This document shows positions 1,836 through 21,419 of a stretch of DNA of 64,000 bases, in pieces. The notes below the pieces were generated by a model. It searched no databases, was not told the DNA's origin, and worked only from the letters and a program-made list of their open reading frames with translations. The stretch is from Schmidtea polychroa (lineage: Eukaryota): contig CM097885.1 of the NCBI GenBank assembly GCA_044892525.1, positions 3,040,001 to 3,104,000 on the forward strand. The letters are read 5' to 3'. A program made the translations under genes and the position numbers. How positions within the stretch are numbered: the first letter of the stretch is position 1; each line of letters starts with the position of its first letter.

Positions 1836-3521
1836 TTAAGTGATAATAAAAAAATCTAAAAATTCCATTCCTTTAATTATTGATTTAATTTCAGATATGA
1901 ATTTATCAACTATATATTTGTAATCAATACTTTTTACTCCAAGAATTACTATCTTACCACTACCGAATATATTAACACACATAGGGTTATATTTTATATA
2001 TCTCAAAGCTAGAAATAATTCTGGTTCGTAAAAGCATGGTACAGTAAACCCTTCAACTGCGCGGTAGATACGTTCCACAAAAACAACGCGCAAACCGAAA
2101 CCGCGCACTGTGAACCCGATTTTATATGTCATTATGGGGTTAGGTTCCAGATATTACAAAAATATTAAAAAATATAATAAAAAGTCTTTATTCAACGACT
2201 AATATACATATTTACATTTATATAAACATAAAAACTAATAAAAACAGTCTCAATTCATTGCTTTTACATAATTAATATTACTATTATAAAAATTAATAAA
2301 AATTTAACATAAATAAAAATTATAAAAAACAATACAAGAACTAAAAAACAGTCTCAATTCAACGACTAAACATAAATAAAAATTAACATAAGTAACGTTA
2401 TATTAATCACTGCTACATGCTGATGAGCTTGATTCTATTGGCTGTGATTGTATAATTTTTTGAAAAAAGCTTGTTAACATTGATTGCTTACCAGCTTTTT
2501 GTTTTTCTTTATAAATTTCAGCATATGGTGCTAAAGCTGCTGTCAGATTTCTCCGAAATTTTAAGGCACGCTCCATATGAGGGTCTATATTAAGAGCTTG
2601 CTGTTCAAGTTGACTACCAAGTTTTAAAAAACTTGATAGTTTTTCGGTAGTAAACTTTTTCTCTTCAGTAATCTGTACATCTTCTTCACTTTCATCATTT
2701 TCATCATTATTACCGCCGAACTGTGTCAAAATATCGTCAACAGTATTATTTTCTTCATTTGACACAAGGACTTCCGTGATATCTAATAATTTTTTATTAC
2801 GGTTATATCTAATGCACACGAATAAGATTTTTTTGAATTAAATACTAATATATTTTTAATTAAATAAACACTTGTATAAATATCTATTAATTAAAACTAT
2901 GTAATTTTACATCCTAATCCTAACCACATCACTAGAAAAATGAAACTGCCTTTATTATTTTTATATAAAAAATACAGTGCATCGAAATACGATGAATCAC
3001 TATTTTCACTACCATATGTATTCGTAGTTTTACGGGATTCACCATAAAAAATTAAATTGACATGATTTTTCTTGTTAAAATAGACAAAAACAAAAAAAAA
3101 CCTCGCAGCTACGAATTTTTAGCGCGCAGATCGAAATTTTGGTATTAAAGGTTTGGCCGCGCAATTGCGAAACCGCGCAATGAAAAACCGCGCAGTTGGA
3201 GGGTTTACTGTATTAATTTAGCCAATTTATTTAAATTAAAAGAAAACCTATATGGGAAGTTACTGTTATCGATTGTATTTCTAAATCATAAACATTATAT
3301 TCACTAGCTTTGATTATTTCCTTACATCCCATAATTCTACATTTACCAGTTTTGAAATATATTATGGGATATTTATTACTTCTATTGATAAGTTGTTGTG
3401 GTTTCCTCAGCGGAAATACCATTTTTGATACATCAGCTTTTGCCCTGTAATTTATATTTGAAAGCTTTTTTAAATGGCAGTGCCTCGAGTTTTTTAAGTT
3501 TTTTAAATAATAATAATGCAA
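1836..3521 (-). pseudogene. TATA-binding protein (TBP)-like gene, intronless, split by a pogo/Tigger insertion and a frameshift
   Basis: ORF 3231-3521 has IIYFKTGKCRIMG and IQSITVT (TBP repeat 1/2 junction). ORF 1836-2132 has YEPELF...VNIFGSGKIVILGVKS (TBP YEPELFPG...IFVSGKVVLTGAK). Removing 2042-3210 plus one TA copy gives NLNKLAKLIPCFYEPELF after a 1-nt frameshift near 3240. Confidence 0.8.
2042..3210 (-). mobile_element. Internally deleted pogo/Tigger-like DNA transposon
   Basis: TIRs CAGTAAACCCTTCAACTGCGCGG / CCGCGCAGTTGGAGGGTTTACTG, with TA on both sides (2040-41, 3211-12). ORF 2403-2819 resembles a pogo transposase C-terminus (acidic tract, KQSMLTSFF). Confidence 0.85.
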
Positions 3522-4070: not shown

Positions 4071-4217
4071 TTTTAAAAAATATTATTATTTTTATTATTA
4101 TTTTTAAAAATATTATTATTTTATTTTTAATTTTTTCAAAGTTCCCGCCAACGAAAATTAATAATCGATAGCTCATTTTAAAGCTCAATCCAAGACCTTT
4201 CGAATGAGCCATATATA

Positions 4218-4484
<267 letters not shown>

Positions 4485-4629
4485 CTATATACACCGAGTC
4501 TATATACTCTGAGTCTATCCGACAAAATATTTTGTCCCCCTATGGGTAATGCTCACAAGGGTACTGCTCACGCTCAATAACTCGCATTCGATTATTTTAT
4601 TTTTTCAAATTGATATTATTTTTTTTTTT

Positions 4630-5345
4630 CAAGGTCATATTATTATTTTTCAAAATATTATTATTTTCAAGGTCATATTATTATTTTTCAAAATATTATT
4701 ATTTTCAAGGTCATATTATTATTTTTCAAAATATTATTATTTTCAAGGTCATATTATTATTTTTCAAAATATTATTATTTTCAAGGTCATATTATTATTT
4801 TTCAAAATATTATTATTTTCAAGGTCATATTATTATTTTTCAAAATATTATTATTTTCAAGGTCATATTATTATTTTTCAAAATATTATTATTTTCAAGG
4901 TCATATTATTATTTTTCAAAATATTATTATTTTCAAGGTCATATTATTATTTTTTCAAAATATTATTATTTTCAAGGTCATATTATTATTTTTCAAAATA
5001 TTATTATTTTCAAGGTCATATTATTATTTTTCAAAATATTATTATTTTCAAGGTCATATTATTATTTTTCAAAATATTATTATTTTCAAGGTCATATTAT
5101 TATTTTTCAAAATATTATTATTTTCAAGGTCATATTATTATTTTTCAAAATATTATTAATTTCAAGGTCATATTATTATTTTTCAAAATATTATTAATTT
5201 CAAGGTCATATTATTATTTTTCAAAATATTAATAATTTCAAGGTCATATTATTATTTTTCAAAATATTATTAATTTCAAGGTCATATTATTATTTTTCAA
5301 AATATTATTAATTTCAAGGTCATATTATTATTTTCAAGGTCATAT
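4630..5345 (+). repeat. 38-bp minisatellite (AAGGTCATATTATTATTTTTCAAAATATTATTATTTTC), ~19 copies
   Basis: Direct reading; produces 38-aa periodic spurious ORFs. Confidence 0.95.
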
Positions 5346-5444
5346 TATTTTTGTTTTAATTATCGATTATTTAATAATTTAATTTTGTTTAAATCGTTGA
5401 TTATACAATAATATTTTTATTTTTTCTTTTAATTGTCAATTATG

Positions 5445-6521
5445 TGTTAAGGATAGGCCTGGGGCCTGGAGTGTAAAATAAATAAAGAATTACTATATTT
5501 AGAAACAGTATTAATAAAAAATTACTGAAAATAAAAGATAGGTTTTATTAATTACTATTAATAGATTTAGGTAATATATAGGAATATTTGATAATACTAT
5601 TACTATATATAGTAATTATAAAATTACTATTAATATAATAAATAATTATAATGTGATATAAATACTGGTTCAAACGAGAATCAAGGGACGATAAAAACAT
5701 AGACAATAAAATTGACGATAATTTGCGGACGGGAAAACTGACAAGAAAGTTCGAAAAGGAATTGAAACAATAATTTAGAAAATTATTATCATTTTGAAAA
5801 CGAAAACGTGATTAAAGAATCACTGTGTCAATTATTAAGTTTAGAAGTTCAACATTTGTCTACAACAATAAAACGTGATTAAAGAATCACGGTGTTCATC
5901 AATCAACCAGACGATAACTCAACTCAAATTTCAGATCGTTTTACAAATTAGAAAGTGACTATAAATTGTCAAACGGAACAAACTAGAATCAGAGAGAATA
6001 ATTTTGGAGAGAAAATTGGAACAGATTCGTGAAACAATAGAAAGGAGCTATTAATCTAGAAGGTAAAAGAAGTTCTGTACTTGAGTTGTGTAAGGATAAA
6101 TTATTATCCTTGTGAAGTGAGATAATTAAAATAAAGCGAACACAAAGCACAGACAGCGGCTTTCGTGTTACCTGGTAGCCCCAAAATCAGCCCTCTTACT
6201 TTACCGTCATCTTTTCAATTTATTTAGCGATCGTTGTGCTACACAGGAGCCATCGATTTCTTGCAGGCTGTGGTAAACAGTAAGGATTAATAAATCCGTT
6301 TTCTTGTATTCTTTGCACATATATTATAAATATCTGTTGTAAATTATTAAATACATTTTTATAAAAGAGAAAGGCGTTTGTTGTTAATTCAGTGATTTAA
6401 AAACTCATATACGCAACCACATTAAATAACTTATTTATATTTATTTTTATTTATTTATCTTAATTAAGTTATTGGAGTCATTTGTGTTAAGATCTGTAGT
6501 CCCCGTTTTTCGATCTTAACA
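5445..6521 (+). repeat. 5' LTR (1077 bp)
   Basis: TG...CA with 7-bp inverted ends TGTTAAG/CTTAACA; matches 19669-20745. Confidence 0.97.
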
Positions 6522-6524
6522 TTT

Positions 6525-6542
6525 TGGTGAGCCCGACGTGAT
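6525..6542 (+). promoter_or_regulatory. Primer-binding site, tRNA-Trp
   Basis: TGGTGAGCCCGACGTGAT, 3 nt after the LTR; 17/18 match to the canonical tRNA-Trp PBS TGGTGACCCCGACGTGAT. Confidence 0.85.
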
Positions 6543-6659
6543 AGCAATTTTCGGGGGAATAAGAATTTTATTTATAAAAGGCAAACATCTTTTTGAATCA
6601 TTGAGTTAAGAAATAGAAGGGTAATAAATTTAAGACCAGGTAATAGAAACCAGCAAATA

Positions 6660-9600
6660 ATGGCAGAGATAAATAATTTACAAAATCTAAATGAGAATAA
6701 TTTACAAAATAATAATGTGCCAGTAGCTCAACCACCAGCGGTAGATTTTATGAGATACCCAACAATTCCGATTAAACCATTTAGTGGAAACCCAGGGGAG
6801 TTTCCAGAATTTATGTCCGAATATTTTCAGTTAGCCAGAGCATTAGGATTCCCGGAACCGGTAATGATTTTGAGATTACCTTTATATTTAAAAGGGATGG
6901 CACGGGAAATATATAACGATGTTATAATAGCCGAGCATCCAGTTGAATGGAATGTATTACGATTAGCATTACAAAATAGAATATTACCGGGGGATGCAAC
7001 TAGAGTGCTGAGACAACAGTTTTATAACAGGCGACAAAATTCGGGTGAGCATGTTGGGGAATTTTCATATCAAATAATGATGTTGGCAGAGAGAGCATTT
7101 GGTAATAGGGCAGCCTGGAATGATGCAACTAGAGCATTAGTAAAAGATCAGTTTTGGTCTGGGTTATCGTCAGCAATGAGAAATGCACTAAGTTTACACA
7201 TAGGAGATAATTTAGAGGAATTAACTCGTAAAGCGTGTTTAATTGAGAGTAGCATTGAGAAGTCAAACAATTTTGCAATTAGTAGCAACAAGTCAGACAT
7301 TGAGTGTTTTAATTGTCATAAAAAGGGACATATGTCAAAAGATTGTAAAAGTAGGAATAATTCTCCGGGGGACAAATTGTGTACCAAGTGTGGGAGAAAT
7401 AATCATGTGGCATCAAACTGTAGAATTTCGGACCTAAATTGTGAGAAATGCAAGCGCAAGGGACATGTAGCGTCAGTTTGTAAAGCTAGTTTTGGGGGAA
7501 ATAATTCAAATAATAATAATAATAGAAATAGAAGCCCCGATAGGAATTTTCGTGGTAATAATAATAATAATAATAACTTTCAGAGTAGAAATAATAATTT
7601 TAATAATAATATTAAAAGGGATGAAGTAAATTCGGGGGGTAAAATTAAATGTCATAAGTGTGGGAAATTTGGTCATATTATGCGTTCATGTCCACAAAAT
7701 CAGTTATCTAATAACAATGGTAGTGGCAACAATGGTAATAATCGATCAAAACAGACAACGTTTGCAGTAAATTCAGACCACAAATTAACGTATTTGCAGC
7801 AGCTTGAATTAGAAATTCAAGAAGAAAGAAACAGGTTAGCAAGGCTAACAACAAATGAAACTGATGGGTACGATGAAAATGAAGGTGTTTATATGACGTC
7901 AGCCAGAAAAAGGCGAAATAAAAATAATTATGTAGAACTTGAAGTGTTGATGCTTCAAGAGAGTCCAAGGGAGGACAAAGAGGAAAAGACTATGGTCATG
8001 GAACCAGAGGTCTGTGAGGGTTTACAGGTTTCACCCAGGAAAAATCTAGTGGCTGTGGCCATGGAGCCAGAAGCCAACAGAGAAATAGAAGGTTTACCGG
8101 TTTCACCAGTCAAAAATCGTAAGGCTATGGACATGGATCCAGTAGTTAATGAAATTGTTCCAACAGAAGTTTTGGAAAAAAGATGGGCTTCGGTCATTGA
8201 GCCGGAAGTTCTTATAGCCACATCATCCATGCGAGGTGAGTGTGGTAGCGAACCAATAAAGGTTAGAGAAGCATCGAAAGAGGAAAGAAATCCCATCGAT
8301 GACTGTAGAAAAATACTATTACGCAAGAGCGTATGGCAAAGAGAAATGAGACAGAAATTAGAAAATATTCGTTTAAACCCTGTTAATGAGAATGAGGTTG
8401 ACAAAGTAATGGATATCATATCAGAGTTAGACAGAAATGAGGAATATTATCCAGAATTGAGAGAAATTCTGAGAAATATTGGCCTAAATTGGAAACAAAG
8501 AGAGAATCTGGAGGATTCTACAATTTTTGTATCTTTCCCAAAAGGTTGTTTTCGTAGATATACAATTAACCCAAGTGAAAAGGTAGAAGCATTGGCAAAG
8601 AGAGTTTCTGTGGTAAAACCTCAACAGAGATGCAAACTATATTTACTGGGAGAAAGATTATTAGAGGGAGAAACCTTGTTAGATTGTGGTATACTACCGG
8701 GGAAAAATATGGTTATAAAAGCAAAGTTTCACAAGGAAACTGTTACAGTAGTGGACTTGGATAATGTCCTTACTATAAGCGAGATTGAAATTGATCAATT
8801 AAATCAAATATCAGCCGTACCACATAGATTGGGAATTGAACTGATGAAAAACCCAAGAGATGGGGAAGCCATTAAGATGATAATGGATTGGATACTGGAG
8901 TTGCGAATCCCAGTAGATACTCTTAGAGAGATAATGCCATTGGTGGTGCCTTTAGTAAAAGAGACATCACAATTCCAGACACAAGCAAAGATGCTGTTGA
9001 TTAAAAATGGACATGCTATTAGACATTTGGAAGGTAGACAAGGTCCAGTGATGTTAGATATCAGGATACCCAGGAGAGGACACCTGATACAACAATTCTC
9101 ATGTTATCATAGGGTAAAGAAACTGAGAAAAAGGATATCAGAAATATTAAAAGAGTCATTCCTCATAATGATACATGGTTGTCAGGTGGATGACGACGAA
9201 TTTCTAGTAGATGTTGGATGTTTTCCCAATGAGGAAACAGTTGTATTAATATTACTGGTAGAGTTTCCAGAGGATGAATGGGCAACTTTGAGATTGCCAG
9301 ATAATGCAGAAATGGAGGATGAAACAGTACATCCTGAGCAAAAACAAGTAGACGGGAATACTCATCAGGAACCCGTAACCACAGTAGATTTAGATGAAGA
9401 GATAGATAAATATCTCAAGGAACTTGATAACACTGAAGACGAGTTGGTCGAAATATTTCCTACAGAGGAAGATAATGAAGTACAATTAAATCGAGATGAA
9501 ACAAACAACGGAGCTAGTACATCGCGACAAGTCGAGCCACCAAGAGAAAGAGTGAGCCCGAAATTAGTCGAGAATAAAAAGAAAAGGGAGAGAAGGGGTA

Positions 9601-12600
9601 GACCGAGGAAAAGTCAAATGAACCCACCTCCAAGAGAACTTCTAAAACCAGTTACAATACAAAATGTAACTAAGCAGGCTCTAGCAGGGATAGCTAGCCA
9701 AATCGATAAAAGCGTTGGAGACGCTAGTGACAAAACGGAAACATGGAAAAGACTGAATCAAATCTTACGACTGATTAAGCCCGATTGGCAAATCAAGAAG
9801 GATAAAAGTGTTAATGTTGACAAAATTGCAGAAAAAGTCAAGAAAGCTATGGAAAAGATTCCAGGAAGCACTACGGAACAGGAGATGTTCGAAATAGCAG
9901 GGCAATTCATAGATGAAGGCCTGACGAAAGGGAAAATGATAACGATTCTAGCCTTAATGTTTAAAAATGCATTGAGCATAATTAAAGATGATTCGTCGAA
10001 AATTCCAGCAGCCATAGACAAGCTGACTGATATCATCGAAGTGAATTTCAGAACATGGATGACTGAGCACAAGTTTTGGGATATAAAAGAAACGAAAGGA
10101 AAATATGAATTAAATGAAGAATTGTTGACAGAAAATATTTCAAGTAGTCCACGGGGAACAGGTGGATTTACTAGTTGGATGATGATGTTGTTGGTAATGA
10201 TGGGAATACTGCGACAGACAAATTCCCTAACGGCATATGATTGTAGTGAACCAATACTATCGCGAATCTACTCATTAGTTGACACAGTGGAATGCAAGGA
10301 AGCATATCCAGATAAAGTTGCAAAAAGGGAAGACGTAGAATATCATGTTTATCAGCAAACAGAGTTTTACAGAACCAGAGTGAGGGAATGTCGAATACAG
10401 AGAGCGACTTTCGAATATTACTGTGGATCGAATAGTTATTCAGCATTTTTAGGAGCTAAACTCATTCCTATACCGTTAATCATCCCACCAGAGGATTGTG
10501 TAAATGCTTTCCGGTCAAAAACAGTCAAAATAGATCAGGAGGTAACAATTACCGCGGAAGAGGGGAAAAAGTTGGGTATAACTATTACCCGGGGTGGACC
10601 GATAGCAGAAGATGGTTCTTGTCATGGTAGAAAGAAAGTTAGAGGTTCTAATGTAGTAAGCTATGTGGTAACAGTTGAGGACTACACAGTAGAGCTGATA
10701 GAGTACGAAGGAACTTTCGAAGTATCCACGGGAAAAATGATGTCTCATCCAGAATGCAACGTGAAATATGGTTATTGTAAAACCAGTTTAGCAGTATTAA
10801 CGTACCAATCAATGAGAGATTTTTGTGATTTAGGATACCTGAAAAAGGTAGTATTTTCAAGGCTAGATGGGAAGAGTTTTGCGTCTCAGGATTCACAACA
10901 AAGTGGTTGGGGAGACAAGATAACTCACAAAACGAAAAAGGAAGTAGTACCGGAGAAAAGCACAGCAGTAGTATTAGTCTCCAAGGACCCAACAGATGCA
11001 ATTCGTTTAGTCAGAAAGAAACAGACAACGAAATGTGGTGTACCAATATTTGAAACCAACTACAAGGGAATATACTTAGCATACAAATATGTTCCAGCAG
11101 CAGAATCATTACATTTATCAGATATTAAAATAGCCAAGTATATCAATAATAAGATTGATTTCTTGTATCATGATCTGCAGAAACAATTATTAGATGTCTA
11201 TCAGGAAGTGATCCTGAACGACTGTCGTTTGAATCGGGAAATAATACGGAATAGATTAGCAATATCTATAGCTAATCCGGATCTAATAATGCCAATGTTG
11301 ACAGAGGAAGGAACATTCGGCAGAATTTTGGGCGAAGCAATTTATAGCTATCAGTGCAAAGCAATAGAGGTGGAAATTACCAAATATGATCGATGTACAT
11401 TGGAGTTACCAGTGAAATATAAAGGAAAATTGAGATTCCTGATGCCAGTATCACACCAGCTATTAAAGGAGGATACCTCACCATTAACAGCAATTTGCAA
11501 TCCAGCAATGTCACCATTATACAAAATTAACAATATTTGGATTTCGTTGCCAGATAGAAAACCGCCTTCAAAACCAGTTGAAGTGCTTCAAGCGACAAAG
11601 TTAGAAACTAAAATGGAGTTTCAACCATTAAACGAGATGTCAAAAGGAGGAGTATATACTCCGGAAGATATTGAAGAAGCTCGGAGAGCAATCGTATTTC
11701 CCCAAATCAGAGATAGGGGAGTGACGGAAATAATAACAAGAATCTATCAATCATATGATGGAAAACCGGACTATAACTTATTATTTGGACCAGAACATTA
11801 TAAACAAGCTGCATCCAATGTAATACGGAAAATCTGGGGTAGATTTACAAGCTTTGGCATTTTTGTAGCAGGATGTTCAGGTATATATGCAATAGTGATG
11901 ATATTGAAAATAATCATATCGCAATTATTTTCTACCTATAGTATCTTCAAGATCGGGGGATGGTCTTGGAAGTTGCTACTAGGAATGTGTCCAGTTTGTG
12001 CAGATTTTGCAGTATTTCATCATCATAATAAAGAGATTAAAAGAATGAAGAGACAAACTATAAAGAAGCATGAGTTAATAATGTATGAACCTAGTCATCG
12101 AGACGATGACAATTCTGACGAGGGAGGTAACCTAGAGGGCTATGAGACCTCAGACAACACCTCAATAAAACCAGACAACAAAAAACCGAAATTTCAAAAT
12201 TTTGAAAACAGTACTTTACAACAGTACCCTGTTAAAGCAAAAAGGAGGAAACGGCAGGAGTGGCCCGTAAATTACTTGTCTCCATACGAGGGTAGAAAAA
12301 AGATAATACCAGAACGAGTTGAAGAAGAAATGTTAAAGAGGCTCGAGTTTAGAACGAATACAGATATATCACCATCTACCTCATACCCAACGTATAAAAT
12401 GAAGTTCGAGACAATGCCACCCTTGGGTACATCAGTATTTGAGATGGTACCGAAATATCCATTTAGCACGTTGGAACGGCTAAAGGAAGAGTATAAAGAT
12501 GAAATAAAATCAGAAAATGACAAAGATAGTGATGATCAACAAAAGTTCAGAGACAATATTCGAGGAATCTCAACAATATTAATGGTCAATATGGGTAAAA

Positions 12601-15600
12601 AGACTCATAAACCTACGATTAAATTAAAAGTTAACAGGCATACGGTACATGCCATTATTGATTCAGGATCAGATTTGACATTGATCGAAGCAAATTTATT
12701 AAATGAAAAAGAATTACAAGCAATAGTGCCGACATTACTTGTTGCATCGGGAGCAAATGGACAACCTATCAATGTTATCGGAACATTAGATTGCGAATTA
12801 AGGTTGTGTGATCAAAAATTTAGACACGATATCAAGGTCACTAGACAATGTATGGCAGAATGTATCGTGGGAATGGATATATTGAAAAAGTTAAAAGATA
12901 TTGTATTTGATTGTGCAACAGGTGAATTAGTGAAAATGACTGGTAGAAAACGGAAAACCTACAGTGTGGATGTAGTGTTTTTGGATAGAACGGTGACAAT
13001 ACCACCGAGGACCGAAACAGTTTGTTTCGTAGCAACACACCAAGAGGTGGAAGGAGATGTTATTTTCGAACCCAGTGAGCAGTTCGTAAATAGGTATAAA
13101 ACGCCTATGGTGCAAAACTTGGCAACAGTACGGGGAGGAAGGATCCCGATTAGATTAACAAATCTAGCGAGCAAATCATTGAGATTATACCCAGAGACTA
13201 GAGTGGGTAAAGTGATACAACTATCTAACATGCAGAAAGAGTCTGAATCGATATTATCAGTAGAAGAGGATGAACGAGATCCTGATATCGAATATTACGA
13301 CGCACCGAGCTGCGATAGTAAAACCTTATCTAGAAAGGAAAACATCAGAGTTAACCAATTGTTACGTAAATATGACCAAGTTTTCGCAAAACACGAGTAT
13401 GACTTAGGGCAAGTTAATATTTTAGAGCATGAAATTAAATTAACAGAAAATAAACCGATAAAAATACGCCCGTATAGAATACCTCAAAGTATACAAGGGT
13501 CCGTTGATAAACAAATTAAATTAATGCAAAAATATAATATAATCAGACCCAGTAAATCTCCATATTCCTCACCTTTGGTGGTTGTAGCTAAAAGAGACGG
13601 CTCAGTTAGATTATGCAATGACTATAGGAAATTAAATGAACAAACAGTTAGTGATAATCACCCGCTACCTTTGCTAGATTACATTTATGATAAAATGAAA
13701 AATTCAAAGTTGTTTACTGTGATGGATGCACAGAAAGGTTTTTATCAAATAAAGATGAGCGAAGACTCAATTCCTATGACAGGATTTTCTACAAGTAGTG
13801 ATCATTTTGAATACTTAGTAATGCCGTTTGGATTAAAAGGAGCCCCTCCAACTTTCCAGAGGGCAATGAATATCATGTTGATGGATGCACATCACGCAAT
13901 GGTATATATAGACGATATTATCATCTTCTCGGAAGACTTAGATAAACATTTGGATCATCTGGAGGACATTTTCAAAAGATTAATTATGGCAAACCTGAAA
14001 GTAAAGCCAAGCAAATGCAAATGGGCAGAATCGGAAGTGATTTACGTAGGGCATGTAATATCACACGATTGCGTAAGACCAGATCCGGCGAACACGGATA
14101 AAGTAAAGAATTTCCCACAACCAGTGAATGTAAAACAAATCAAAGGATTTTTAGGGTTGACGGGATACTATCGGAAATTTATACGAAATTTTTCAGCAAT
14201 AGCTTTTCCTCTAACTACCTTAGAAAAGAAAGGTATAAAATTTTTATGGGGAGAAGATCAGCAACAGGCATTCGATAAGTTAAAAGATGCACTATGCAAA
14301 CCTCCAATTCTACGATTTCCAGATTTTAAAAGACAATTCATGGTGATGACCGATGCATGCACAAGAGGTATAGGTGCCGTTTTGGGACAGAAAGACGAAA
14401 TTGGCGATGAGTACGCTGTAGCATATGCAAGTCGTGGATTGAAGCCACACGAGAAAAGTTATGCTGTAATAGAATTGGAAGCATTAGCATTAGTATTTGC
14501 AGTGGAAAAATTTAGTCATTACCTATGGGGCAGAAAGGTAATTTTCTATACAGATCATAGACCCTTGCAATGGCTGTTAAAACATAGAGACGAAGCATCA
14601 AAATTAGTAAGATGGGCATTGAGATTACAGCCATATAATATCGAAATTGTATATCGTAAAGGTAAAGCTAATGGTAATGCAGACGCATTATCACGAATGG
14701 AACAAGAGCCTGAGTTAGAAGATATAAAGGAAGGAAGATTAGAAGGAACAATCTTCATGCTAACAAGAGAGGCTAACACTTTGAGCGATATAGTAGAAGC
14801 ACAGAAAAATGATGACGAAATCAATATGATCAGACAAGCTATAGAAGCAAAGGCCATACCAAATGAATTTCAGAAATATTGGGAGAAACATAAAGATAAA
14901 TTCATATTGGAAGAAGGGCTAATCAAATACGTTGAATCAAGGGATAATGTAATATTAGTACCAAAGAAATACAGAGAATCACTATTATTACAATACCACG
15001 ACGGAGCACTGGGAGGACATCTCTCAGCTAGACATACACTGTCAAGATTAAAAATGAAATACTTCTGGCCAGATATGAAAGATGATGTTAAAAAGTGGTG
15101 TCAATCATGTAAGATATGTATAACCAGAAGGAACACAGGCAGGAAACCACATGTTCCATTGAAACCAATGCCAGTACCGTCCTCGCCAATGGAGATGACT
15201 GCTATGGACGTACTAGGGCCTTTTAAAGAATCAAAAATGGGAAATAAATTTATCATAGTATTTTGCGATTACTTAACCAAGTGGCCCGAAGCATTCCCAA
15301 TTCCGAATCATAAGGCAGACACAATTGCCAGAATCTTTGTAGAACAAATTGTATTCAGATATGGTGTTCCAACAAAATTACTTACCGACAGAGGAAAGGA
15401 TTTCATGAGTAATCTGTTAAAAAGTATAAATGATTATTTTGGTATTCTAAAATTAAATACCTCACCATACCATCCACAGACGGATGGATTGGTAGAAAGG
15501 TTCAATGGAACCTTGGCAAACATGTTATCATCATACGTAAACTCAGGTCAGACGGACTGGGATGTACACATACCATCGTGTTTGTTTGCGTACAGAAATG

Positions 15601-17147
15601 CTGTTCATTCAGTAACAGGAGAAACACCTTTCTATCTGATGTATTTAAGGCATAGCAAGATGCCAGTCGATCTTATATTTTATCCGAAAGCTTCACAGAA
15701 TTGTGACGAAGGAAATTACTTATTCGAGATGAGAGAGAGAATGCAAGAAGCCTGGGAGAAAGCAGGTTTGAACATTCGTTATAACCAAGAAACAATGAAA
15801 GAATATCATGATCGTAAAGCGAAGGATCATGGGTTTTTGGTAGGAGATTATGTCATGTTAGAAGGACATTACAACAAAAAAGGTTTATCTCCAAAATTAA
15901 TGAGAAATTACAAAGGGCCGTATCAAATTTTGAAAGTCACAGAAACCAATTTAGTCTTACAGTTAGTGGCAAACAGAAAAGCCGAACCGATAATGGTTCA
16001 TGCAAACAGATGTAAAAAGATAGCCCCACCAGAAAAGGAGAAACCAAAATCAGAAATCAATGAATTCGAAATAGATAAGAAATCGAAAAAGAAAACGTTG
16101 GAATCATACAAAAGTATCCTAAAAGGACAACCGGAACGATACCCCTTACGATCTCGGCAAGTACCGAAAACAGTTACATTTCTAGCAGTGATTAGTTGTC
16201 TTATGATGATTGGACAAGCATTCGAGGTATTCACACCTAAAGCCAGTCAACATCCAGATATCGAATATCAACGAACAGATAGAGCGTTCAGATTTCATTT
16301 AACGAATATACAATGGCATAGATATGATTTATATTTGGTAGCTGCTGAAAGAGGGATATCATTTCACTTGAATACATGGGATCGAGTAAAAGTAATAGAA
16401 GGACTTATGCCGAATACAAGTTATCTATTAGAAATCAAAACATTTTTTGCAGATCCAAACGTTTTTGCAGACGGCGGAGATTGTGTAGATAAAGCAGCAT
16501 GGATTTTGAAGACTGCAAAATTTACCAAAAAAGTAGAGATTTCATATCTCAGGCAGATAGTTAGATTTACTCATCCACGGTGGAAAAGAAATGACACATC
16601 TTCCACTCACGATTGGAGGACGAATAATAAAATTGCGCTAATCGTCATATTAGAAAACGACCAGCGAGTCGAGAGATTAGTGCTCAACCATGCGTATCTA
16701 AGTAGAAGATGGAAAATCAAACCAGACACCGTGACAAAAGCGAATATTTCGTATTTGGAATTTACGGAGAGAACCGGTTGGTATACAATATATCAAGAAA
16801 TAGTAAATCTAATACCTCCCACAAAGGGAGAACTAACTAGCAAAGAAGGAAAGGCTAGATTAGTAAATATTCCTGGTTGTAAAGGAATAAATGCTTTAGA
16901 TTGGTTTAGTATTAGAAAGGTAGCGAGTGTAAAACAGCCCCGCATAACTAAAATAATTAATAATTGTAGTTGTCAAAATACGTTAAAGGGGGCAGCGAGG
17001 GAGAAAACGCCAACATGGCTATTGTTAATTATGATAGGGGGAGTAATTTGCATGATTTTAATTTTGCTTTTAACCACCCTATGGATGTTTAGATTAAATA
17101 TACGAGATATGCGTTATTGGGAAAATATTTACGAAACCGAGGTATAG
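6660..17147 (+). CDS. 3495-aa polyprotein: Gag(4 CCHC)-Ubl-Ubl-AT-hook-Bcl2-like-Env glycoprotein-PR-RT-RNaseH-IN-FN3-like TM protein
   Basis: Four CX2CX4HX4C knuckles; protease IIDSGS (~12654); RT MPFGL and YIDD (~13905); RNaseH TDAC..GAVL..ELE..TDH; IN HHCC plus D,D(35)E (MDVLGP, TDRG, GLVER). Accessory domains are described in findings. Confidence 0.95.
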   Translation: MAEINNLQNLNENNLQNNNVPVAQPPAVDFMRYPTIPIKPFSGNPGEFPEFMSEYFQLARALGFPEPVMILRLPLYLKGMAREIYNDVIIAEHPVEWNVLRLALQNRILPGDATRVLRQQFYNRRQNSGEHVGEFSYQIMMLAERAFGNRAAWNDATRALVKDQFWSGLSSAMRNALSLHIGDNLEELTRKACLIESSIEKSNNFAISSNKSDIECFNCHKKGHMSKDCKSRNNSPGDKLCTKCGRNNHVASNCRISDLNCEKCKRKGHVASVCKASFGGNNSNNNNNRNRSPDRNFRGNNNNNNNFQSRNNNFNNNIKRDEVNSGGKIKCHKCGKFGHIMRSCPQNQLSNNNGSGNNGNNRSKQTTFAVNSDHKLTYLQQLELEIQEERNRLARLTTNETDGYDENEGVYMTSARKRRNKNNYVELEVLMLQESPREDKEEKTMVMEPEVCEGLQVSPRKNLVAVAMEPEANREIEGLPVSPVKNRKAMDMDPVVNEIVPTEVLEKRWASVIEPEVLIATSSMRGECGSEPIKVREASKEERNPIDDCRKILLRKSVWQREMRQKLENIRLNPVNENEVDKVMDIISELDRNEEYYPELREILRNIGLNWKQRENLEDSTIFVSFPKGCFRRYTINPSEKVEALAKRVSVVKPQQRCKLYLLGERLLEGETLLDCGILPGKNMVIKAKFHKETVTVVDLDNVLTISEIEIDQLNQISAVPHRLGIELMKNPRDGEAIKMIMDWILELRIPVDTLREIMPLVVPLVKETSQFQTQAKMLLIKNGHAIRHLEGRQGPVMLDIRIPRRGHLIQQFSCYHRVKKLRKRISEILKESFLIMIHGCQVDDDEFLVDVGCFPNEETVVLILLVEFPEDEWATLRLPDNAEMEDETVHPEQKQVDGNTHQEPVTTVDLDEEIDKYLKELDNTEDELVEIFPTEEDNEVQLNRDETNNGASTSRQVEPPRERVSPKLVENKKKRERRGRPRKSQMNPPPRELLKPVTIQNVTKQALAGIASQIDKSVGDASDKTETWKRLNQILRLIKPDWQIKKDKSVNVDKIAEKVKKAMEKIPGSTTEQEMFEIAGQFIDEGLTKGKMITILALMFKNALSIIKDDSSKIPAAIDKLTDIIEVNFRTWMTEHKFWDIKETKGKYELNEELLTENISSSPRGTGGFTSWMMMLLVMMGILRQTNSLTAYDCSEPILSRIYSLVDTVECKEAYPDKVAKREDVEYHVYQQTEFYRTRVRECRIQRATFEYYCGSNSYSAFLGAKLIPIPLIIPPEDCVNAFRSKTVKIDQEVTITAEEGKKLGITITRGGPIAEDGSCHGRKKVRGSNVVSYVVTVEDYTVELIEYEGTFEVSTGKMMSHPECNVKYGYCKTSLAVLTYQSMRDFCDLGYLKKVVFSRLDGKSFASQDSQQSGWGDKITHKTKKEVVPEKSTAVVLVSKDPTDAIRLVRKKQTTKCGVPIFETNYKGIYLAYKYVPAAESLHLSDIKIAKYINNKIDFLYHDLQKQLLDVYQEVILNDCRLNREIIRNRLAISIANPDLIMPMLTEEGTFGRILGEAIYSYQCKAIEVEITKYDRCTLELPVKYKGKLRFLMPVSHQLLKEDTSPLTAICNPAMSPLYKINNIWISLPDRKPPSKPVEVLQATKLETKMEFQPLNEMSKGGVYTPEDIEEARRAIVFPQIRDRGVTEIITRIYQSYDGKPDYNLLFGPEHYKQAASNVIRKIWGRFTSFGIFVAGCSGIYAIVMILKIIISQLFSTYSIFKIGGWSWKLLLGMCPVCADFAVFHHHNKEIKRMKRQTIKKHELIMYEPSHRDDDNSDEGGNLEGYETSDNTSIKPDNKKPKFQNFENSTLQQYPVKAKRRKRQEWPVNYLSPYEGRKKIIPERVEEEMLKRLEFRTNTDISPSTSYPTYKMKFETMPPLGTSVFEMVPKYPFSTLERLKEEYKDEIKSENDKDSDDQQKFRDNIRGISTILMVNMGKKTHKPTIKLKVNRHTVHAIIDSGSDLTLIEANLLNEKELQAIVPTLLVASGANGQPINVIGTLDCELRLCDQKFRHDIKVTRQCMAECIVGMDILKKLKDIVFDCATGELVKMTGRKRKTYSVDVVFLDRTVTIPPRTETVCFVATHQEVEGDVIFEPSEQFVNRYKTPMVQNLATVRGGRIPIRLTNLASKSLRLYPETRVGKVIQLSNMQKESESILSVEEDERDPDIEYYDAPSCDSKTLSRKENIRVNQLLRKYDQVFAKHEYDLGQVNILEHEIKLTENKPIKIRPYRIPQSIQGSVDKQIKLMQKYNIIRPSKSPYSSPLVVVAKRDGSVRLCNDYRKLNEQTVSDNHPLPLLDYIYDKMKNSKLFTVMDAQKGFYQIKMSEDSIPMTGFSTSSDHFEYLVMPFGLKGAPPTFQRAMNIMLMDAHHAMVYIDDIIIFSEDLDKHLDHLEDIFKRLIMANLKVKPSKCKWAESEVIYVGHVISHDCVRPDPANTDKVKNFPQPVNVKQIKGFLGLTGYYRKFIRNFSAIAFPLTTLEKKGIKFLWGEDQQQAFDKLKDALCKPPILRFPDFKRQFMVMTDACTRGIGAVLGQKDEIGDEYAVAYASRGLKPHEKSYAVIELEALALVFAVEKFSHYLWGRKVIFYTDHRPLQWLLKHRDEASKLVRWALRLQPYNIEIVYRKGKANGNADALSRMEQEPELEDIKEGRLEGTIFMLTREANTLSDIVEAQKNDDEINMIRQAIEAKAIPNEFQKYWEKHKDKFILEEGLIKYVESRDNVILVPKKYRESLLLQYHDGALGGHLSARHTLSRLKMKYFWPDMKDDVKKWCQSCKICITRRNTGRKPHVPLKPMPVPSSPMEMTAMDVLGPFKESKMGNKFIIVFCDYLTKWPEAFPIPNHKADTIARIFVEQIVFRYGVPTKLLTDRGKDFMSNLLKSINDYFGILKLNTSPYHPQTDGLVERFNGTLANMLSSYVNSGQTDWDVHIPSCLFAYRNAVHSVTGETPFYLMYLRHSKMPVDLIFYPKASQNCDEGNYLFEMRERMQEAWEKAGLNIRYNQETMKEYHDRKAKDHGFLVGDYVMLEGHYNKKGLSPKLMRNYKGPYQILKVTETNLVLQLVANRKAEPIMVHANRCKKIAPPEKEKPKSEINEFEIDKKSKKKTLESYKSILKGQPERYPLRSRQVPKTVTFLAVISCLMMIGQAFEVFTPKASQHPDIEYQRTDRAFRFHLTNIQWHRYDLYLVAAERGISFHLNTWDRVKVIEGLMPNTSYLLEIKTFFADPNVFADGGDCVDKAAWILKTAKFTKKVEISYLRQIVRFTHPRWKRNDTSSTHDWRTNNKIALIVILENDQRVERLVLNHAYLSRRWKIKPDTVTKANISYLEFTERTGWYTIYQEIVNLIPPTKGELTSKEGKARLVNIPGCKGINALDWFSIRKVASVKQPRITKIINNCSCQNTLKGAAREKTPTWLLLIMIGGVICMILILLLTTLWMFRLNIRDMRYWENIYETEV

Positions 17148-17347
17148 GGGGAAAGTCTCACCATATACTAGGAAGTGTAAATATATATAGTTATTTATTT
17201 CATATGTTATTTATATTAGTATGTAGACTAATGTGGGCTCAAATGAGCATCGGTAAAATCAGACATCAGCGTATGTCGACTTTGGTTACCCTGCGAGGGT
17301 CTATCACGAAAGTGATAAAAGCTGTTAATTATTTTATTTTTAGAAAA

Positions 17348-19420
17348 ATGAATTATAACAGAGAATCAAAGCCGCCAGTCAAAGCAAATCGACGACACCC
17401 ATTGGCAACGTACAATTCCCAAACTCGAGTTGAAACGGAAGTGTATAGCACCTATAAAGAAGAGTATGTATATCGGTTCATCGGAACCACGGTAGCAGCA
17501 AAGATGAATCACCTCACCTCAAACTATTGGTATTATCCCAGGAGAGTGGATATTCCAAACGACTTCAAATTCCCAGGAGGGCCTCGAAGGCAAATGATGG
17601 TAACGGTTATAAATAACCAAGGTAGATTAAAATTGGCGGAACTATGTAGAGAGTATGGTTCATGTCCGAAAGTAGAAAACATTTGGATCCATGCGATCAA
17701 TAGGCCATTTACTGTGTTTATGGCGGGTTTAGAGCTACCTGTTGAATTAGAAAAACAGTGTACTCTGGAGATATACCACGCTGATGGACGAGAACGGAAT
17801 ATTATGATCCAGGCAGCAGCGGTGGACACCATAATCGTAGTGGAAATCTTAGACTTCAGGAAACCATACTCTATAGTTAGCAAAAACGAGCCAACTTGGA
17901 TTTATAATGTAAATGAAGCTGATATACAGCAGTGTAAATCATTCGTGAGGAAGAAGTTAACCAAAGCCGAGGAGGATGAGGCTACAATTTTCATATCGGC
18001 AGGTTTTGCCAAATCCCGAATCGAATTGAAGGAGACAATTATCCAAATCGCAATTATGGATATGAGAGGAAATAATTTATTGAGTGCGGTAGTGACTCCC
18101 AGAGATCCTGTAAAACACTACCAAACGCACCAATACAAGTTAAAGGAACCCGACATTAGAGGAAACCTCGACGAAGATGATTGTCATCATCTGATAAGAA
18201 AGATCTGCGATAAGAAAATACTGGTAGGTATTTTACTTAAAGATCTGATCTCGGTAGCCAATCTACCAGTGCAGCGAATTTTGGGTATTCGTGACCTTTC
18301 TGCAAATAAACTATTGGAAACCAGAGGAGTCCCAAAGATCCATGGTCATTACAGATTGGGATTCCTGACAAAAACTTTCCTGCGTACGGTTCCCGGAGAA
18401 CCAAGGAATTTAGTGGTCACCAATGAGGCACTGGCAATACGTGCTGTTTATTTACATATCAGAAACGAATGGTTAGACCATATCACGATACCTCAGGAGG
18501 AATTCATTTCCGCAACTACAGCAGCGATAGTTGAACAAGAAATGACGCAGAAGAGGAGATTACCTGAGCAACCATCTACATCAGAGCAACCCCAGCCCAA
18601 GAGGAAATCACCTGTGGATCTACCACCGCCTCCAGCCATATCTATTGGAGAAGAAGATGAATATGAAACATGTGCTAGTGAAATAGAGACAGCAAAATCA
18701 CCTAAACAACCATCAGGAGCTGCCTATCAGCCAAAGGATAAATCGGATAATGCGGTCAGAAAAGAAAATCCAGAAGGAGGCAAGGTGAAAAAGATGTTAA
18801 AGAAAATGTTACCCATTAAAAGAGACAAATCGAAGTTAAAGTTGAAGAAAGTTGTTAAACCGTCGGAAGGAACGACAAAAGATACACCCAGCGGTTCGGA
18901 AGATAGGACTATTAAACCTCAAAAGATATTCAGCGAACCAGATGATGACATTATGGAAGTTGCCTTTCAACCTCCGGTTAAGGAGATGCAGGAAGCAATA
19001 AAGGTTAAATCTGAACCTGTGGTAAGGCAGAAATTGTTAAAGATTGCCAAGGAGAATATCATCAAGAAACCAGTTTCGGTTGATGTGGACGGTTTCGAAC
19101 CAATGTGGTACAAACGTCCGGATAGTAAATGGAAACCCAGAGCGAAGGAGTATGACTGCCAACCAGTCACGAGAATGGCAGTCAATAATAACCAAAAATA
19201 TGATGTTTATGACGTAGACGGGATCCCTTACGTGGTGTCTACAGTCATATTAACAAGTGCTCTGGATGGTAAGCCTTTAGCAGTGAGTTTTGAGCCAGAT
19301 GTCTTACAGAAGAGGAAGAAGAAGTTGTTGCAGCAATACGTCATTGCGAATAGCTACAGCACAAAGGAAGTGCACCTTTACAAAGTTCCAGACCCAGATC
19401 CCGATGATCTGGATATCTAA
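17348..19420 (+). CDS. ORF2: REX4/ISG20-like DEDDh exonuclease fold (probably inactive) plus disordered Lys/Pro-rich C-terminus
   Basis: Open frame 17117-19420; likely start at ATG 17348 after an acceptor-like TTTTTAG. IAIMD..GNNLLSAVVTPRDPVKHYQT...KILVG...IRDLS aligns with REX4-type VSIVN..G..VYD.YVKP..PVTDYRT...ILVGH...IRDT. Confidence 0.7.
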   Translation: MNYNRESKPPVKANRRHPLATYNSQTRVETEVYSTYKEEYVYRFIGTTVAAKMNHLTSNYWYYPRRVDIPNDFKFPGGPRRQMMVTVINNQGRLKLAELCREYGSCPKVENIWIHAINRPFTVFMAGLELPVELEKQCTLEIYHADGRERNIMIQAAAVDTIIVVEILDFRKPYSIVSKNEPTWIYNVNEADIQQCKSFVRKKLTKAEEDEATIFISAGFAKSRIELKETIIQIAIMDMRGNNLLSAVVTPRDPVKHYQTHQYKLKEPDIRGNLDEDDCHHLIRKICDKKILVGILLKDLISVANLPVQRILGIRDLSANKLLETRGVPKIHGHYRLGFLTKTFLRTVPGEPRNLVVTNEALAIRAVYLHIRNEWLDHITIPQEEFISATTAAIVEQEMTQKRRLPEQPSTSEQPQPKRKSPVDLPPPPAISIGEEDEYETCASEIETAKSPKQPSGAAYQPKDKSDNAVRKENPEGGKVKKMLKKMLPIKRDKSKLKLKKVVKPSEGTTKDTPSGSEDRTIKPQKIFSEPDDDIMEVAFQPPVKEMQEAIKVKSEPVVRQKLLKIAKENIIKKPVSVDVDGFEPMWYKRPDSKWKPRAKEYDCQPVTRMAVNNNQKYDVYDVDGIPYVVSTVILTSALDGKPLAVSFEPDVLQKRKKKLLQQYVIANSYSTKEVHLYKVPDPDPDDLDI

Positions 19421-19654
19421 CCCAAGAGCGTTGCCACCCAACATGTGTCGTCAAATTCAAATGTGTACAAAATGACTTAACTATTATTTGAGTTGTGTTT
19501 TTCAGTGTTCTGACATTCATTATTTGTGATCTGAAACATTTATATTTTTTGTGTTTTGTCTTATTTGATTAATTTTTATGTTTTATTGTAATACTGTTTA
19601 CCAAAAGCCTTTCCTTAGTCTTGGTTTTGTCTTGTTTTCGAGACGAAAATCTTT

Positions 19655-19668
19655 TAGGGGGTAAGACT
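19655..19668 (+). promoter_or_regulatory. Polypurine tract
   Basis: TAGGGGGTAAGACT immediately 5' of the 3' LTR. Confidence 0.8.
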
Positions 19669-20745
19669 TGTTAAGGATAGGCCTGGGGCCTGGAGTGTAA
19701 AATAAATAAAGAATTACTATATTTAGAAACAGTATTAATAAAAAATTACTGAAAATAAAAGATAGGTTTTATTAATTACTATTAATAGATTTAGGTAATA
19801 TATAGGAATATTTGATAATACTATTACTATATATAGTAATTATAAAATTACTATTAATATAATAAATAATTATAATGTGATATAAATACTGGTTCAAACG
19901 AGAATCAAGGGACGATAAAAACATAGACAATAAAATTGACGATAATTTGCGGACGGGAAAACTGACAAGAAAGTTCGAAAAGGAATTGAAACAATAATTT
20001 AGAAAATTATTATCATTTTGAAAACGAAAACGTGATTAAAGAATCACTGTGTCAATTATTAAGTTTAGAAGTTCAACATTTGTCTACAACAATAAAACGT
20101 GATTAAAGAATCACGGTGTTCATCAATCAACCAGACGATAACTCAACTCAAATTTCAGATCGTTTTACAAATTAGAAAGTGACTATAAATTGTCAAACGG
20201 AACAAACTAGAATCAGAGAGAATAATTTTGGAGAGAAAATTGGAACAGATTCGTGAAACAATAGAAAGGAGCTATTAATCTAGAAGGTAAAAGAAGTTCT
20301 GTACTTGAGTTGTGTAAGGATAAATTATTATCCTTGTGAAGTGAGATAATTAAAATAAAGCGAACACAAAGCACAGACAGCGGCTTTCGTGTTACCTGGT
20401 AGCCCCAAAATCAGCCCTCTTACTTTACCGTCATCTTTTCAATTTATTTAGCGATCGTTGTGCTACACAGGAGCCATCGATTTCTTGCAGGCTGTGGTAA
20501 ACAGTAAGGATTAATAAATCCGTTTTCTTGTATTCTTTGCACATATATTATAAATATCTGTTGTAAATTATTAAATACATTTTTATAAAAGAGAAAGGCG
20601 TTTGTTGTTAATTCAGTGATTTAAAAACTCATATACGCAACCACATTAAATAACTTATTTATATTTATTTTTATTTATTTATCTTAATTAAGTTATTGGA
20701 GTCATTTGTGTTAAGATCTGTAGTCCCCGTTTTTCGATCTTAACA
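19669..20745 (+). repeat. 3' LTR (1077 bp)
   Basis: No differences from the 5' LTR seen by eye. Confidence 0.97.
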
Positions 20746-21315
20746 TATGTAATAATTTAATTTTGTTTAAATCGTTGATTATATGATAATATTTTTTTTT
20801 GTTTTAATTATCAATTATGTAATAATTAAATTTTGTTTAAATCGTTGATTATATGATAATATTTTTATTTTTGTTATAATTATCGATTACTTAATAATTT
20901 AATTTTGTTTAAATCGTTGATTATATAATAATATGTTTATTTTTGTTTTAATTATCGATTACTTAATAATTTAATATTGTTTAAATCGTTAATTATATAA
21001 TAATATTTTTTTTGTTTTAATTATTAATTATGTAATAATTTTATTTTTTTAAATTGTTGATTAAATGATAATATTTTGTTTTTGTTTTAATTATCGATTA
21101 CTTAATAATTTAATATTGTTTAAATGGTTAAATATATAATAATATTTTTTGTTTTAATTATCAATTACGTAATAATTTAATTTTGTTTAAATTGTTGATT
21201 TTATGATAATATTTTTATTTTTGCTTAAATTATCGATTATGTAATAATTTAATTTTATTTAAATCGTTGATTATATTTTTTTTGGTTTAATTATCGATTA
21301 CGTAATAATTTAATT
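20746..21315 (+). repeat. ~60-65-bp AT-rich satellite (TTTAAATCGTTGATTAT...ATCGATTA), target of the LTR insertion
   Basis: Same unit at 5350-5444; inverted at 33240-33540 and 34660-34905. Confidence 0.85.

Positions 21316-21357: not shown

Positions 21358-21419
<62 letters not shown>

Follow-up and report, generated by a model that had tools for sequence, protein, structure and literature searches.

The subject of this report is an endogenous retrovirus (ERV)-like element of the planarian Schmidtea polychroa. It lies in a stretch of 64,000 nucleotides (assembly GCA_044892525.1, contig CM097885.1, positions 3,040,001 to 3,104,000 of the forward strand), which is referred to as the window and to which all coordinates belong. 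The element is a complete long terminal repeat (LTR) element of 15.3 kb (window 5445-20745) that encloses one giant open reading frame (ORF), ORF1, in which an env module is situated in frame between gag and pol. We consider it very probably a young, apparently intact Ty3/Gypsy element of the planarian env-in-frame lineage, the polyprotein of which would work by the membrane-threading scheme proposed below. The modules of ORF1 follow one another as Gag with CCHC zinc knuckles, two likely ubiquitin-like (Ubl) domains, a probable Bcl-2-like domain, a signal peptide, the envelope protein (Env) ectodomain, a transmembrane segment, protease (PR), reverse transcriptase (RT), RNase H and integrase (IN), and finally a second signal, ectodomain and transmembrane segment.

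The initial annotation, made from the letters of the window alone, had described a stop-free frame of 3495 aa at 6660-17147 of the forward strand, and the ORF listing together with its translation reproduces this exactly. At the regional base composition about one stop is expected per 13 codons, which puts the chance of 3495 codons without a stop at ~1e-123; the other two forward frames of the same region carry 349 and 312 stops.

The boundaries of the element are equally well defined. The two LTRs measure 1077 bp each and are 100% identical; the exact repeat match extends over 1078 nt, its final base belonging to the flank and not to the LTR. Both outer LTR flanks carry TATG, a 4-bp target duplication. 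The LTR ends of the form TG..CA, the target-site duplication, the primer-binding site beside the 5' LTR, the polypurine tract beside the 3' LTR, the Pol order PR-RT-RNaseH-IN and the CCHC knuckles of Gag (the last two by Pfam) are together the structural marks of a Ty3/Gypsy element. A search with ARAGORN found no tRNA gene in the window. Because the LTRs are identical, the insertion is judged to be very recent.

For the region between Gag and PR the initial annotation had given a signal-like segment near 10176, a Cys-rich ectodomain of about 550 aa and a transmembrane segment near 11860-11930, and these coordinates hold. The hydrophobic run WMMMLLVMMGIL (residues 1173-1184, window 10176) is followed by RQTNS↓LTAYDC, in which the arrow marks the predicted cut and LTAYDC starts at 10227. 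A hydrophobic run followed by (S/T)↓(L/M)(T/V)AYDC is kept in five lineages, namely this element, P0003 of the sister family introduced below, and the predicted proteins P0007, P0021 and P0038. The ectodomain matches Pfam PF24664 ("Monjiviricetes_fusion, viral fusion glycoprotein") with E=7.1e-82, scoring 275.8 bits where the cut-off is 27, and in two stretches, the better of which places residues 1428-1814 on profile positions 240-626 of 653; the same profile returned 0 matches in 14 control genomes. On this profile evidence the Env ectodomain is taken to be a bona fide viral fusion glycoprotein homologue, which bears out the identity that had been proposed for 10170-12050. The stretch from signal to transmembrane segment measures about 545 aa, 17 Cys lie within residues 1190-1850, and a conserved GWSWKL...CP membrane-proximal stretch follows the transmembrane segment. 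Hydropathy and the conserved cleavage-like motif together give a type I layout, with an N-terminal signal, an ectodomain and one C-terminal transmembrane segment.

The element is not a solitary copy. The genome scanned was a 781-Mb assembly, held mostly in four very large contigs. With the env part as query, 40 of 449 candidate matches were scored; 13 of the 40 (own window included) are about 100% identical, and other copies among those scored show 94-97% and 87-88% identity, so env is present in other genome copies too. Residues 560-1172 gave 75 protein matches, of which 10 fall within an open frame of 3516 aa, counted from stop to stop; a copy of 87% identity has one of 3513 aa. At least 10 genome copies keep the whole ORF1 frame open. 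Three near-identical copies (G000:C2:100878395, 100892613 and 100906831) stand in a head-to-tail array with a spacing of 14,218 bp, which is about the element length minus one LTR; the copies of this array presumably share LTRs.

The genome scan with PF24664 led to a different and more abundant sister family, with 136 matches; of 2581 candidates, 68 were scored. An open frame of 3334 aa surrounds eight of these 68 places, and frames of 3361, 3235, 3217 and 3214 aa surround others. A sister copy (L041 with L042/L045) has the same module order through the RYPLRS motif, the second signal, the ectodomain and the transmembrane segment. The sister family is 38% identical to this element over 2658 aligned positions, and its signal has a corresponding predicted cut, …NTTNS↓LVAYDC. 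Among public predicted proteins, three (3181, 3865 and 2296 aa) unite zf-CCHC, PF24664 and PR in a single chain, which in two cases also contains RT, RNase H and IN. In Env the three are 46%, 38% and 38% identical to this element, respectively. Because the in-frame env layout is kept in the 38%-identical sister family and in the three public polyproteins, we read it as an old and maintained feature and not as an accident of this copy.

Several side observations concern these relatives. In P0007 an ion-transport domain is fused to part of a close relative of the element (Bcl-2-like region, signal, Env pieces), most likely a gene-model artefact across an insertion. P0021 and P0038 have several tandem aspartic-protease domains after Env, with gag-asp_proteas in 2 and 3 stretches, respectively, and P0021 has by eye no recognisable Bcl-2-like part before its signal peptide.

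Selection was assessed by the ratio of nonsynonymous to synonymous substitution (dN/dS), computed pairwise by the Nei-Gojobori method against the diverged copy L039 or, for the post-integrase module, against L046. The ratio is 0.05 for the C-terminal part of gag, 0.12 for the Ubl region (8520-9260), 0.10 for the linker, 0.11 for the Bcl-2-like part, 0.05 for the N-terminal 497 codons of Env (10176-11672) and 0.19 for the post-integrase module, in which the C-terminal RYWENIYETEV is unchanged. Several dS values are near saturation (0.8-1.25), and the ratios are therefore rough. Because dN/dS lies at 0.05-0.2 throughout, all modules are kept by purifying selection on replicating lineages. Within the compared interval (window 6840-11672), the dS of L039 is 0.09-0.15 over gag and the Ubl region and 0.8-1.2 from about 9261 on. 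By this change L039 reads as a mosaic, and the subfamilies would therefore recombine. The features of the element are collected in Table 1.

Table 1. Features of the ERV-like element, in window coordinates
Feature	Position	Strand	Basis
5' LTR	5445..6521	+	TG...CA ends, terminal inverted TGTTAAG/CTTAACA
Putative primer-binding site TGGTGAGCCCGACGTGAT	6525..6542	+	3 nt past 5' LTR, TGG start; sequence reading
ORF1, 3495-aa polyprotein	6660..17147	+	ORF listing and translation
Gag, CCHC zinc knuckles at residues about 214-346	6660..7799	+	Pfam zf-CCHC E=7.5e-15, 4 stretches
Likely ubiquitin-like domain 1, residues about 624-695	8529..8744	+	profile A1 and Pfam
Likely ubiquitin-like domain 2, residues about 795-865	9042..9254	+	profile A1
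Probable Bcl-2-like helical domain, residues about 1025-1145	9732..10094	+	Pfam, PDB profile, atlas, AF2/Foldseek, all weak
Predicted internal signal peptide/anchor FTSWMMMLLVMMGILRQTNS	10167..10226	+	hydropathy; predicted cut before LTAYDC
Env ectodomain, Monjiviricetes (chuvirus/mononegavirus-type) fusion glycoprotein homologue	10227..11858	+	Pfam PF24664
Predicted Env transmembrane segment, residues 1734-1763	11859..11948	+	hydropathy
Aspartic protease (DSGSD), residues 1983-2079	12606..12896	+	Pfam RVP E=8.6e-7
Reverse transcriptase (YIDD) and RNase H	13587..14636	+	RVT_1 E=3.2e-30; RT_RNaseH E=2.3e-34
Integrase, H2C2 zinc domain and core	14958..15521	+	Integrase_H2C2 E=1.3e-19; rve E=2e-7
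Predicted post-integrase membrane module	16167..17144	+	hydropathy
ORF2, about 690 aa from ATG 17348	17348..19420	+	start inferred by aligning diverged copies; open frame from 17117
Polypurine tract AGGGGGTAAGACT	19656..19668	+	abuts 3' LTR; sequence reading
3' LTR	19669..20745	+	100% identity with 5' LTR

The enzymatic domains of ORF1 were assigned by Pfam, with RVT_1 at residues 2310-2467, RNase H at 2530-2659 with RT_RNaseH at 2555-2659, Integrase_H2C2 at 2767-2825 and rve at 2842-2939. The Retrotrans_gag match, obtained with Gag scanned alone, is weak (E=0.14).

Ubl and Bcl-2 modules had been named in the initial annotation. For the region between Gag and the Env signal, several weak lines of evidence agree on two Ubl domains and one Bcl-2-like domain; none of the matches rises above a curated cut-off. 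The Ubl assignment was made largely with profile A1, built from two sequences, this element and the sister family. Among PDB sequences, A1 positions 65-136 (Ubl 1) match ubiquitin/NEDD8 with E of 0.011-0.05 and positions 236-305 (Ubl 2) match ISG15 with E of 0.038; over these two stretches only Ubl proteins were matched. Against 1.84 billion protein representatives A1 retrieved 33 proteins at E ≤ 0.001, of which 22 were scanned with Pfam and found to include 3 true polyubiquitins and several Gag- or Env-bearing fragments; the polyubiquitins P0010 and P0014 were retrieved at about 1e-14 to 1e-15. Many of the fragment homologues cover the Ubl 2 stretch. The Pfam ubiquitin family matches this element with E=0.012 (15.8 bits) and the sister family with E=2.5e-5 (24.4 bits), the cut-off being 25.4. 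From these comparisons two Ubl domains in ORF1 are likely. A protein search with residues 560-1172 gave no homologue at E ≤ 0.001 within the length windows searched.

The evidence for the Bcl-2-like domain is of the same kind. Pfam Bcl-2 matches this element with E=0.03 (15.3 bits) and the sister family with E=0.0025 (18.8 bits), both under the cut-off of 31.4, and profile A1 matches BCL-2-related protein A1 in the PDB with E of 0.22. In the protein atlas, 21 of the 30 nearest clusters belong to Bcl-2 sets, the top one at 0.91 with 209 of 256 features shared, and the list also contains clusters of poxvirus M11L and adenovirus E1B-19K. AlphaFold2 (AF2) modelling from 6 sequences gives an all-helical fold of 6-7 helices at low confidence (pLDDT 51.5). 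In a Foldseek comparison of this model with the PDB, all 46 listed rows (ranks 1-50, with gaps) are Bcl-2-family proteins, with E of 0.01-0.04 and TM-scores of 0.29-0.47, none of them at E ≤ 0.001. We also note a W..GGW motif in the sister family and in P0008, which we take to resemble BH2. A Bcl-2-like domain in ORF1 is thus probable. Cellular Bcl-2 proteins end in a tail anchor; in ORF1 the hydrophobic segment found about 25 residues past the Bcl-2-like domain is the Env signal peptide.

A second membrane module follows IN. It consists of a signal-like segment at residues 3170-3190, an ectodomain of about 260 aa, a transmembrane segment at 3450-3479 and a 16-residue tail ending in ETEV. Just upstream of the signal lies RYPLRS(R/K)Q (window 16140-16160), which is kept in two families that are only 26% identical there (comparison with L045) and is a candidate processing site. 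The same layout recurs in the sister family (L045) and in the public polyproteins P0037 and P0038. No Pfam family matches the module at E ≤ 10 in this element or the sister family, and the PDB offers no usable sequence match. The FN3 domain of the initial annotation was tried for this ectodomain and dropped; a single PDB row at E=0.75 was obtained with profile A5 and none with the three-sequence profile A7, and Pfam gave no FN3 match. The polyprotein ends in ...YETEV in this element (window 17133-17144) and in L046 (74% nucleotide identity), and in ...YETRL in the sister family. These ends presumably fit the class I PDZ-binding rule, and we take ETEV to resemble the ETEV of HTLV-1 Tax. As a general feature of the lineage a class I PDZ-binding C-terminus was rejected, P0037 ending in ...SVLL and P0038 in ...DALF.

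ORF2 starts about 200 nt past the ORF1 stop. Expression by a -1 frameshift within the 31-nt overlap of the two open frames (17117-17147) was considered and rejected on the ground that diverged copies begin ORF2 at an ATG aligned with 17348. Of 68 matches to ORF2, 11 have the frame open at 775 aa, and copies of 75-77% identity keep it open at 675-727 aa; in the sister family no ORF2 of at least 100 aa was found downstream of the polyprotein. ORF2 has no Pfam or PDB match, and its residues 100-500 have no homologue at E ≤ 0.001 within the length windows searched. The atlas leads are RNase_T exonuclease clusters at 0.84-0.86 with 146-155 shared features, which is under the atlas's own trust level, and the AF2 model of residues 100-485 (3 sequences) is unusable at pLDDT 32.4. 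By eye the acidic pair that we assume to form DEDD motif I seems to be missing. The exonuclease that had been listed among the modules of the giant frame thus belongs to ORF2, outside ORF1, and the assignment is no more than a lead from the atlas (0.86).

The membrane topology was derived from Kyte-Doolittle windows and from the -3/-1 rule applied by eye. Four hydrophobic segments occur at matching places in this element, in the sister family (P0003 with L045) and in P0038, and three in P0037 at the threshold used; with one transmembrane segment after each ectodomain, all enzymatic domains come to lie on the cytosolic side. In the scheme that we propose, the genomic RNA would be translated into one polyprotein, of which Gag, the Ubl domains and the Bcl-2-like domain would remain cytosolic. 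The internal signal peptide would then bring the Env ectodomain into the lumen of the endoplasmic reticulum (ER), where signal peptidase would cleave before LTAYDC. The cleaved signal peptide would be left as a C-terminal membrane anchor of the Bcl-2-like domain, comparable to the capsid anchor of flaviviruses. The Env transmembrane segment would send the chain back to the cytosol, and PR, RT and IN would be made there, tethered to the Env tail, until the post-integrase signal and transmembrane segment place a second ectodomain in the lumen, for four membrane crossings altogether. The protease of the element would cleave the cytosolic junctions, and Gag, Pol and the two membrane proteins would thereby be brought together at one membrane, ready for budding and for spread from cell to cell or through the germline. 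The Ubl and Bcl-2-like modules may act on host ubiquitin and apoptosis pathways, as has been suggested for the giant planarian element Burro. Since even families of no more than 38% identity keep the in-frame layout, co-translational ER entry of the polyprotein is the most economical interpretation, and the mechanism as a whole is plausible and in part supported.

Several observations weigh against this scheme. Env gave no match to PDB chains by sequence, and each single line of the Ubl and Bcl-2-like assignments lies under its curated cut-off. P0037 has no hydrophobic segment above threshold after its Env. A moderately hydrophobic stretch, LLLGMCPVCADFAVF (residues 1772-1786), comes after the Env transmembrane segment of this element; if it also spans the membrane, Pol would be lumenal and the topology model would fail. 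Synthesis of Gag, Env and Pol at 1:1:1 fits poorly with capsid assembly, and unequal turnover of the products would be required. Finally, the Env signal peptide starts with a cluster of Met residues (MMM..VMM; window 10176-10200), as do those of P0007 and P0021, and these residues may be internal start sites; such a start would allow translation to begin internally on a shorter mRNA.

A bolder version of the scheme, in which the polyprotein is threaded four times through the membrane, the Env signal serves as the tail anchor of the Bcl-2-like domain, the post-integrase module is a second type I membrane protein and ORF2 is possibly a degenerate exonuclease-like protein, is a tentative extension that we regard as possible rather than probable. 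If it is true, particles or infected cells would bear two element-encoded surface proteins, and the expression logic of a retroelement would have converged on flavivirus-like polyprotein processing.

The Met clusters lead to an alternative that we consider unlikely without being negligible. Env, and perhaps the post-integrase module and ORF2, might be made mainly from subgenomic mRNAs, either cis-spliced or spliced-leader trans-spliced, with translation starting at the Met cluster of the signal peptide and with the continuous frame serving only Gag-Pol read-through. Multiple Met at the signal start occur in three lineages (WMMMLLVMM here, NMMMMMLVMM in P0007 and STMMLMMIMM in P0021), and ORF2, separated from ORF1 as it is, needs a separate expression route in any case. 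Spliced env mRNAs are standard in retroviruses and Drosophila gypsy, insect errantiviruses express env from a spliced mRNA, and planarians allow spliced-leader trans-splicing. However, no stop is found between the Env transmembrane segment and PR in any family read; an mRNA beginning at the signal peptide would thus yield Env fused to Pol all the same, except where splicing removes pol. The signal of the sister family also has one early Met only (WLMISVIM). Contigs from four public runs, the library type of which is uncertain, contain joints with non-canonical ends that look like deletion variants of copies, and loose contig ends at 17335 coincide with the ORF2 start of the sister subfamily. 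No GT..AG joints were seen in these contigs, and with the uncertain library type this is neutral for subgenomic expression.

It is quite unlikely, in our estimation, that the element is a purely intracellular retrotransposon which uses its Env-like and post-integrase modules for membrane-associated assembly or host manipulation and not for infection. All the evidence is genomic, tandem arrays with shared LTRs such as the one with 14,218-bp spacing can arise by recombination without infection, and just one N-x-S/T site lies in residues 1190-1850, the region counted as Env ectodomain. Against this stand the constraint on Env, which together with gag is the most constrained module (dN/dS 0.05), and its retention across deep divergence (38-46% identity). 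Neither is easily explained if the element can propagate without Env.

As a discovery the element adds little, the main features being already in print. What the analysis adds is an explicit topology model, purifying selection assessed per module, and a conserved post-integrase membrane module together with a subfamily-specific ORF2. An apparently fully coding and very young env-in-frame planarian element with at least 10 open copies also offers a practical system for the expression of Gag, Env and Pol from one frame. It further bears on whether the PIWI control of planarian somatic stem cells serves in part to keep such elements from spreading between cells.

The surroundings of the element may be noted briefly. 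Copies of a 67-72-bp tandem repeat (family D5) flank it on both sides (window 5266-5494 and 20714-21364), which suggests insertion into a satellite array. Farther upstream are an array with a 38-bp period (4430-5490) and a long ATT microsatellite (about 4150-4550). Another stretch of the window, 54000-60000, has a strong positive GC skew. In it, an ORF of 572 aa (57094-58812) has no Pfam match and one of 275 aa (59130-59957) carries a dual-specificity phosphatase domain (E=1.2e-16); the stretch may represent either a further mobile element or a gene of the host.

Comparison with known elements places this one in a described group. Burro (also GYPSM1) denotes a set of giant LTR retrotransposons, Gypsy-like in kind, that occur in Schmidtea mediterranea and in further Dugesiidae (Arkhipova & Yushenova 2019, PMC6431247, citing Grohme et al. 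2018 and Jurka 2007). Its ORF1 of 4873 aa contains Gag with three CCHC knuckles, MATH_TRAF_C, Ubi2/SUMO-like and BCL2-like motifs, and the env region between BCL2 and PR matches mononegavirus fusion glycoproteins of arthropods and fish; Burro-like elements were proposed to be integrated proviruses meddling with apoptosis and ubiquitination (PMC6431247). The present element shares with Burro one giant ORF1, Gag-CCHC, likely Ubi-like and probable BCL2-like modules, an in-frame env, the order PR-RT-RH-IN, accessory ORFs and a planarian host. Compared by description only, Burro exceeds 30 kb with an ORF1 of about 4900-5100 aa, in contrast to 15.3 kb and 3495 aa here, which agrees with the initial estimate of about half the Burro size. 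A Pfam scan of ORF1 at E ≤ 0.1 gave none of the Burro extras MATH_TRAF_C, BIR, ankyrin, AIR1, Smc and dUTPase. Lacking these domains and being half the size, the element should not be counted as a true Burro; it is a compact representative of that kind.

The closest group was catalogued by Chary & Hayashi (eLife 2026, bioRxiv 2023, PMC13524379), who describe GAG-ENV-POL errantiviruses of Nematoda, Bryozoa and Platyhelminthes with an Env of the HSV/gB type (class III); the initial view that env always forms a separate 3' ORF after pol is not upheld by this catalogue. It contains six S. mediterranea elements, Smed_errantivirus_1 to 6, of 14.5-18 kb and in 1 to 215 copies, which fall in RT clade E and IN clade Y; the AlphaFold model of the Smed_errantivirus_3 Env was classed as HSV/gB type, and no tRNA is stated for the primer-binding site of the Smed elements (PMC13524379). 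Shared with the present element are the gag-env-pol order, one LTR element, the size class, the multi-copy state and the platyhelminth genome. The nearest catalogued relative is Smed_errantivirus_4, with an Env ectodomain of roughly 70% identity as judged by eye, not computed; the Env here differs from all six printed Smed ectodomains. By eye the Env ectodomain of the sister family (P0003) is nearly that of the printed Smed_errantivirus_2. That the lineage is undescribed and its gag-env-pol polyprotein unprecedented, as the initial annotation had suggested, is highly improbable, since Burro was described with this module order in 2019 (PMC6431247), elements of this kind and size were catalogued in S. 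mediterranea in 2023/2026 (PMC13524379) and one of them has the similar Env just mentioned; by the annotation's own criterion, prior cataloguing of the architecture, the claim is refuted. In its favour, the exact subfamily is not among the six printed elements, the peptide YHVYQQTEF is absent from the supplements of PMC13524379, and the Burro extras (MATH/TRAF, BIR, ankyrin, dUTPase) are lacking here.

The architecture, the Ubl/BCL2-like modules, the mononegavirus-like env and the provirus hypothesis are already in print (2019, 2023-2026). The terms "single ORF", "fused", "polyprotein", "frameshift" and "splic" are absent from the main text of PMC13524379, and no treatment of the Ubl, Bcl-2-like, post-integrase and ORF2 modules was found in the passages of it that were covered. 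A printed mention of the four-segment topology, the post-integrase membrane module or ORF2 was likewise not found in the texts covered; this absence is soft, the figures and the papers of Grohme 2018, Jurka 2007 and Sacco 2022 lying outside that scope.

More distant systems share single features. Nematode ERVs with env before pol also have a gB-type Env (Sacco et al. 2022, as cited in PMC13524379); their hosts belong to a different phylum, and the GAG-ENV-POL groups are not monophyletic on the Pol tree (PMC13524379). Mosquito BEL/Pao and arthropod Gypsy elements have captured a Jingchuvirales (chuvirus) glycoprotein (Dezordi et al. 2020, PMC7642597; PMC13524379); these have a Monjiviricetes-type Env, as recognised here through PF24664, and differ in superfamily (BEL/Pao) or host. 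Drosophila gypsy and the insect errantiviruses (Metaviridae) combine a Ty3/Gypsy Pol and env with an ERV-like lifestyle, as here. This is in contrast to their Env arrangement, in which env is a separate 3' ORF after pol and of the F (class I) type (PMC13524379). Flaviviruses and other viruses with membrane-threaded polyproteins, finally, offer a functional analogy without homology. They are RNA viruses with a serine protease, and the topology with which they are compared here is a predicted one; the likeness lies in a polyprotein threaded through the ER, in its cleavage by signal peptidase on the lumenal side and by a viral protease on the cytosolic side, and in a signal that is kept as the anchor of the protein upstream.

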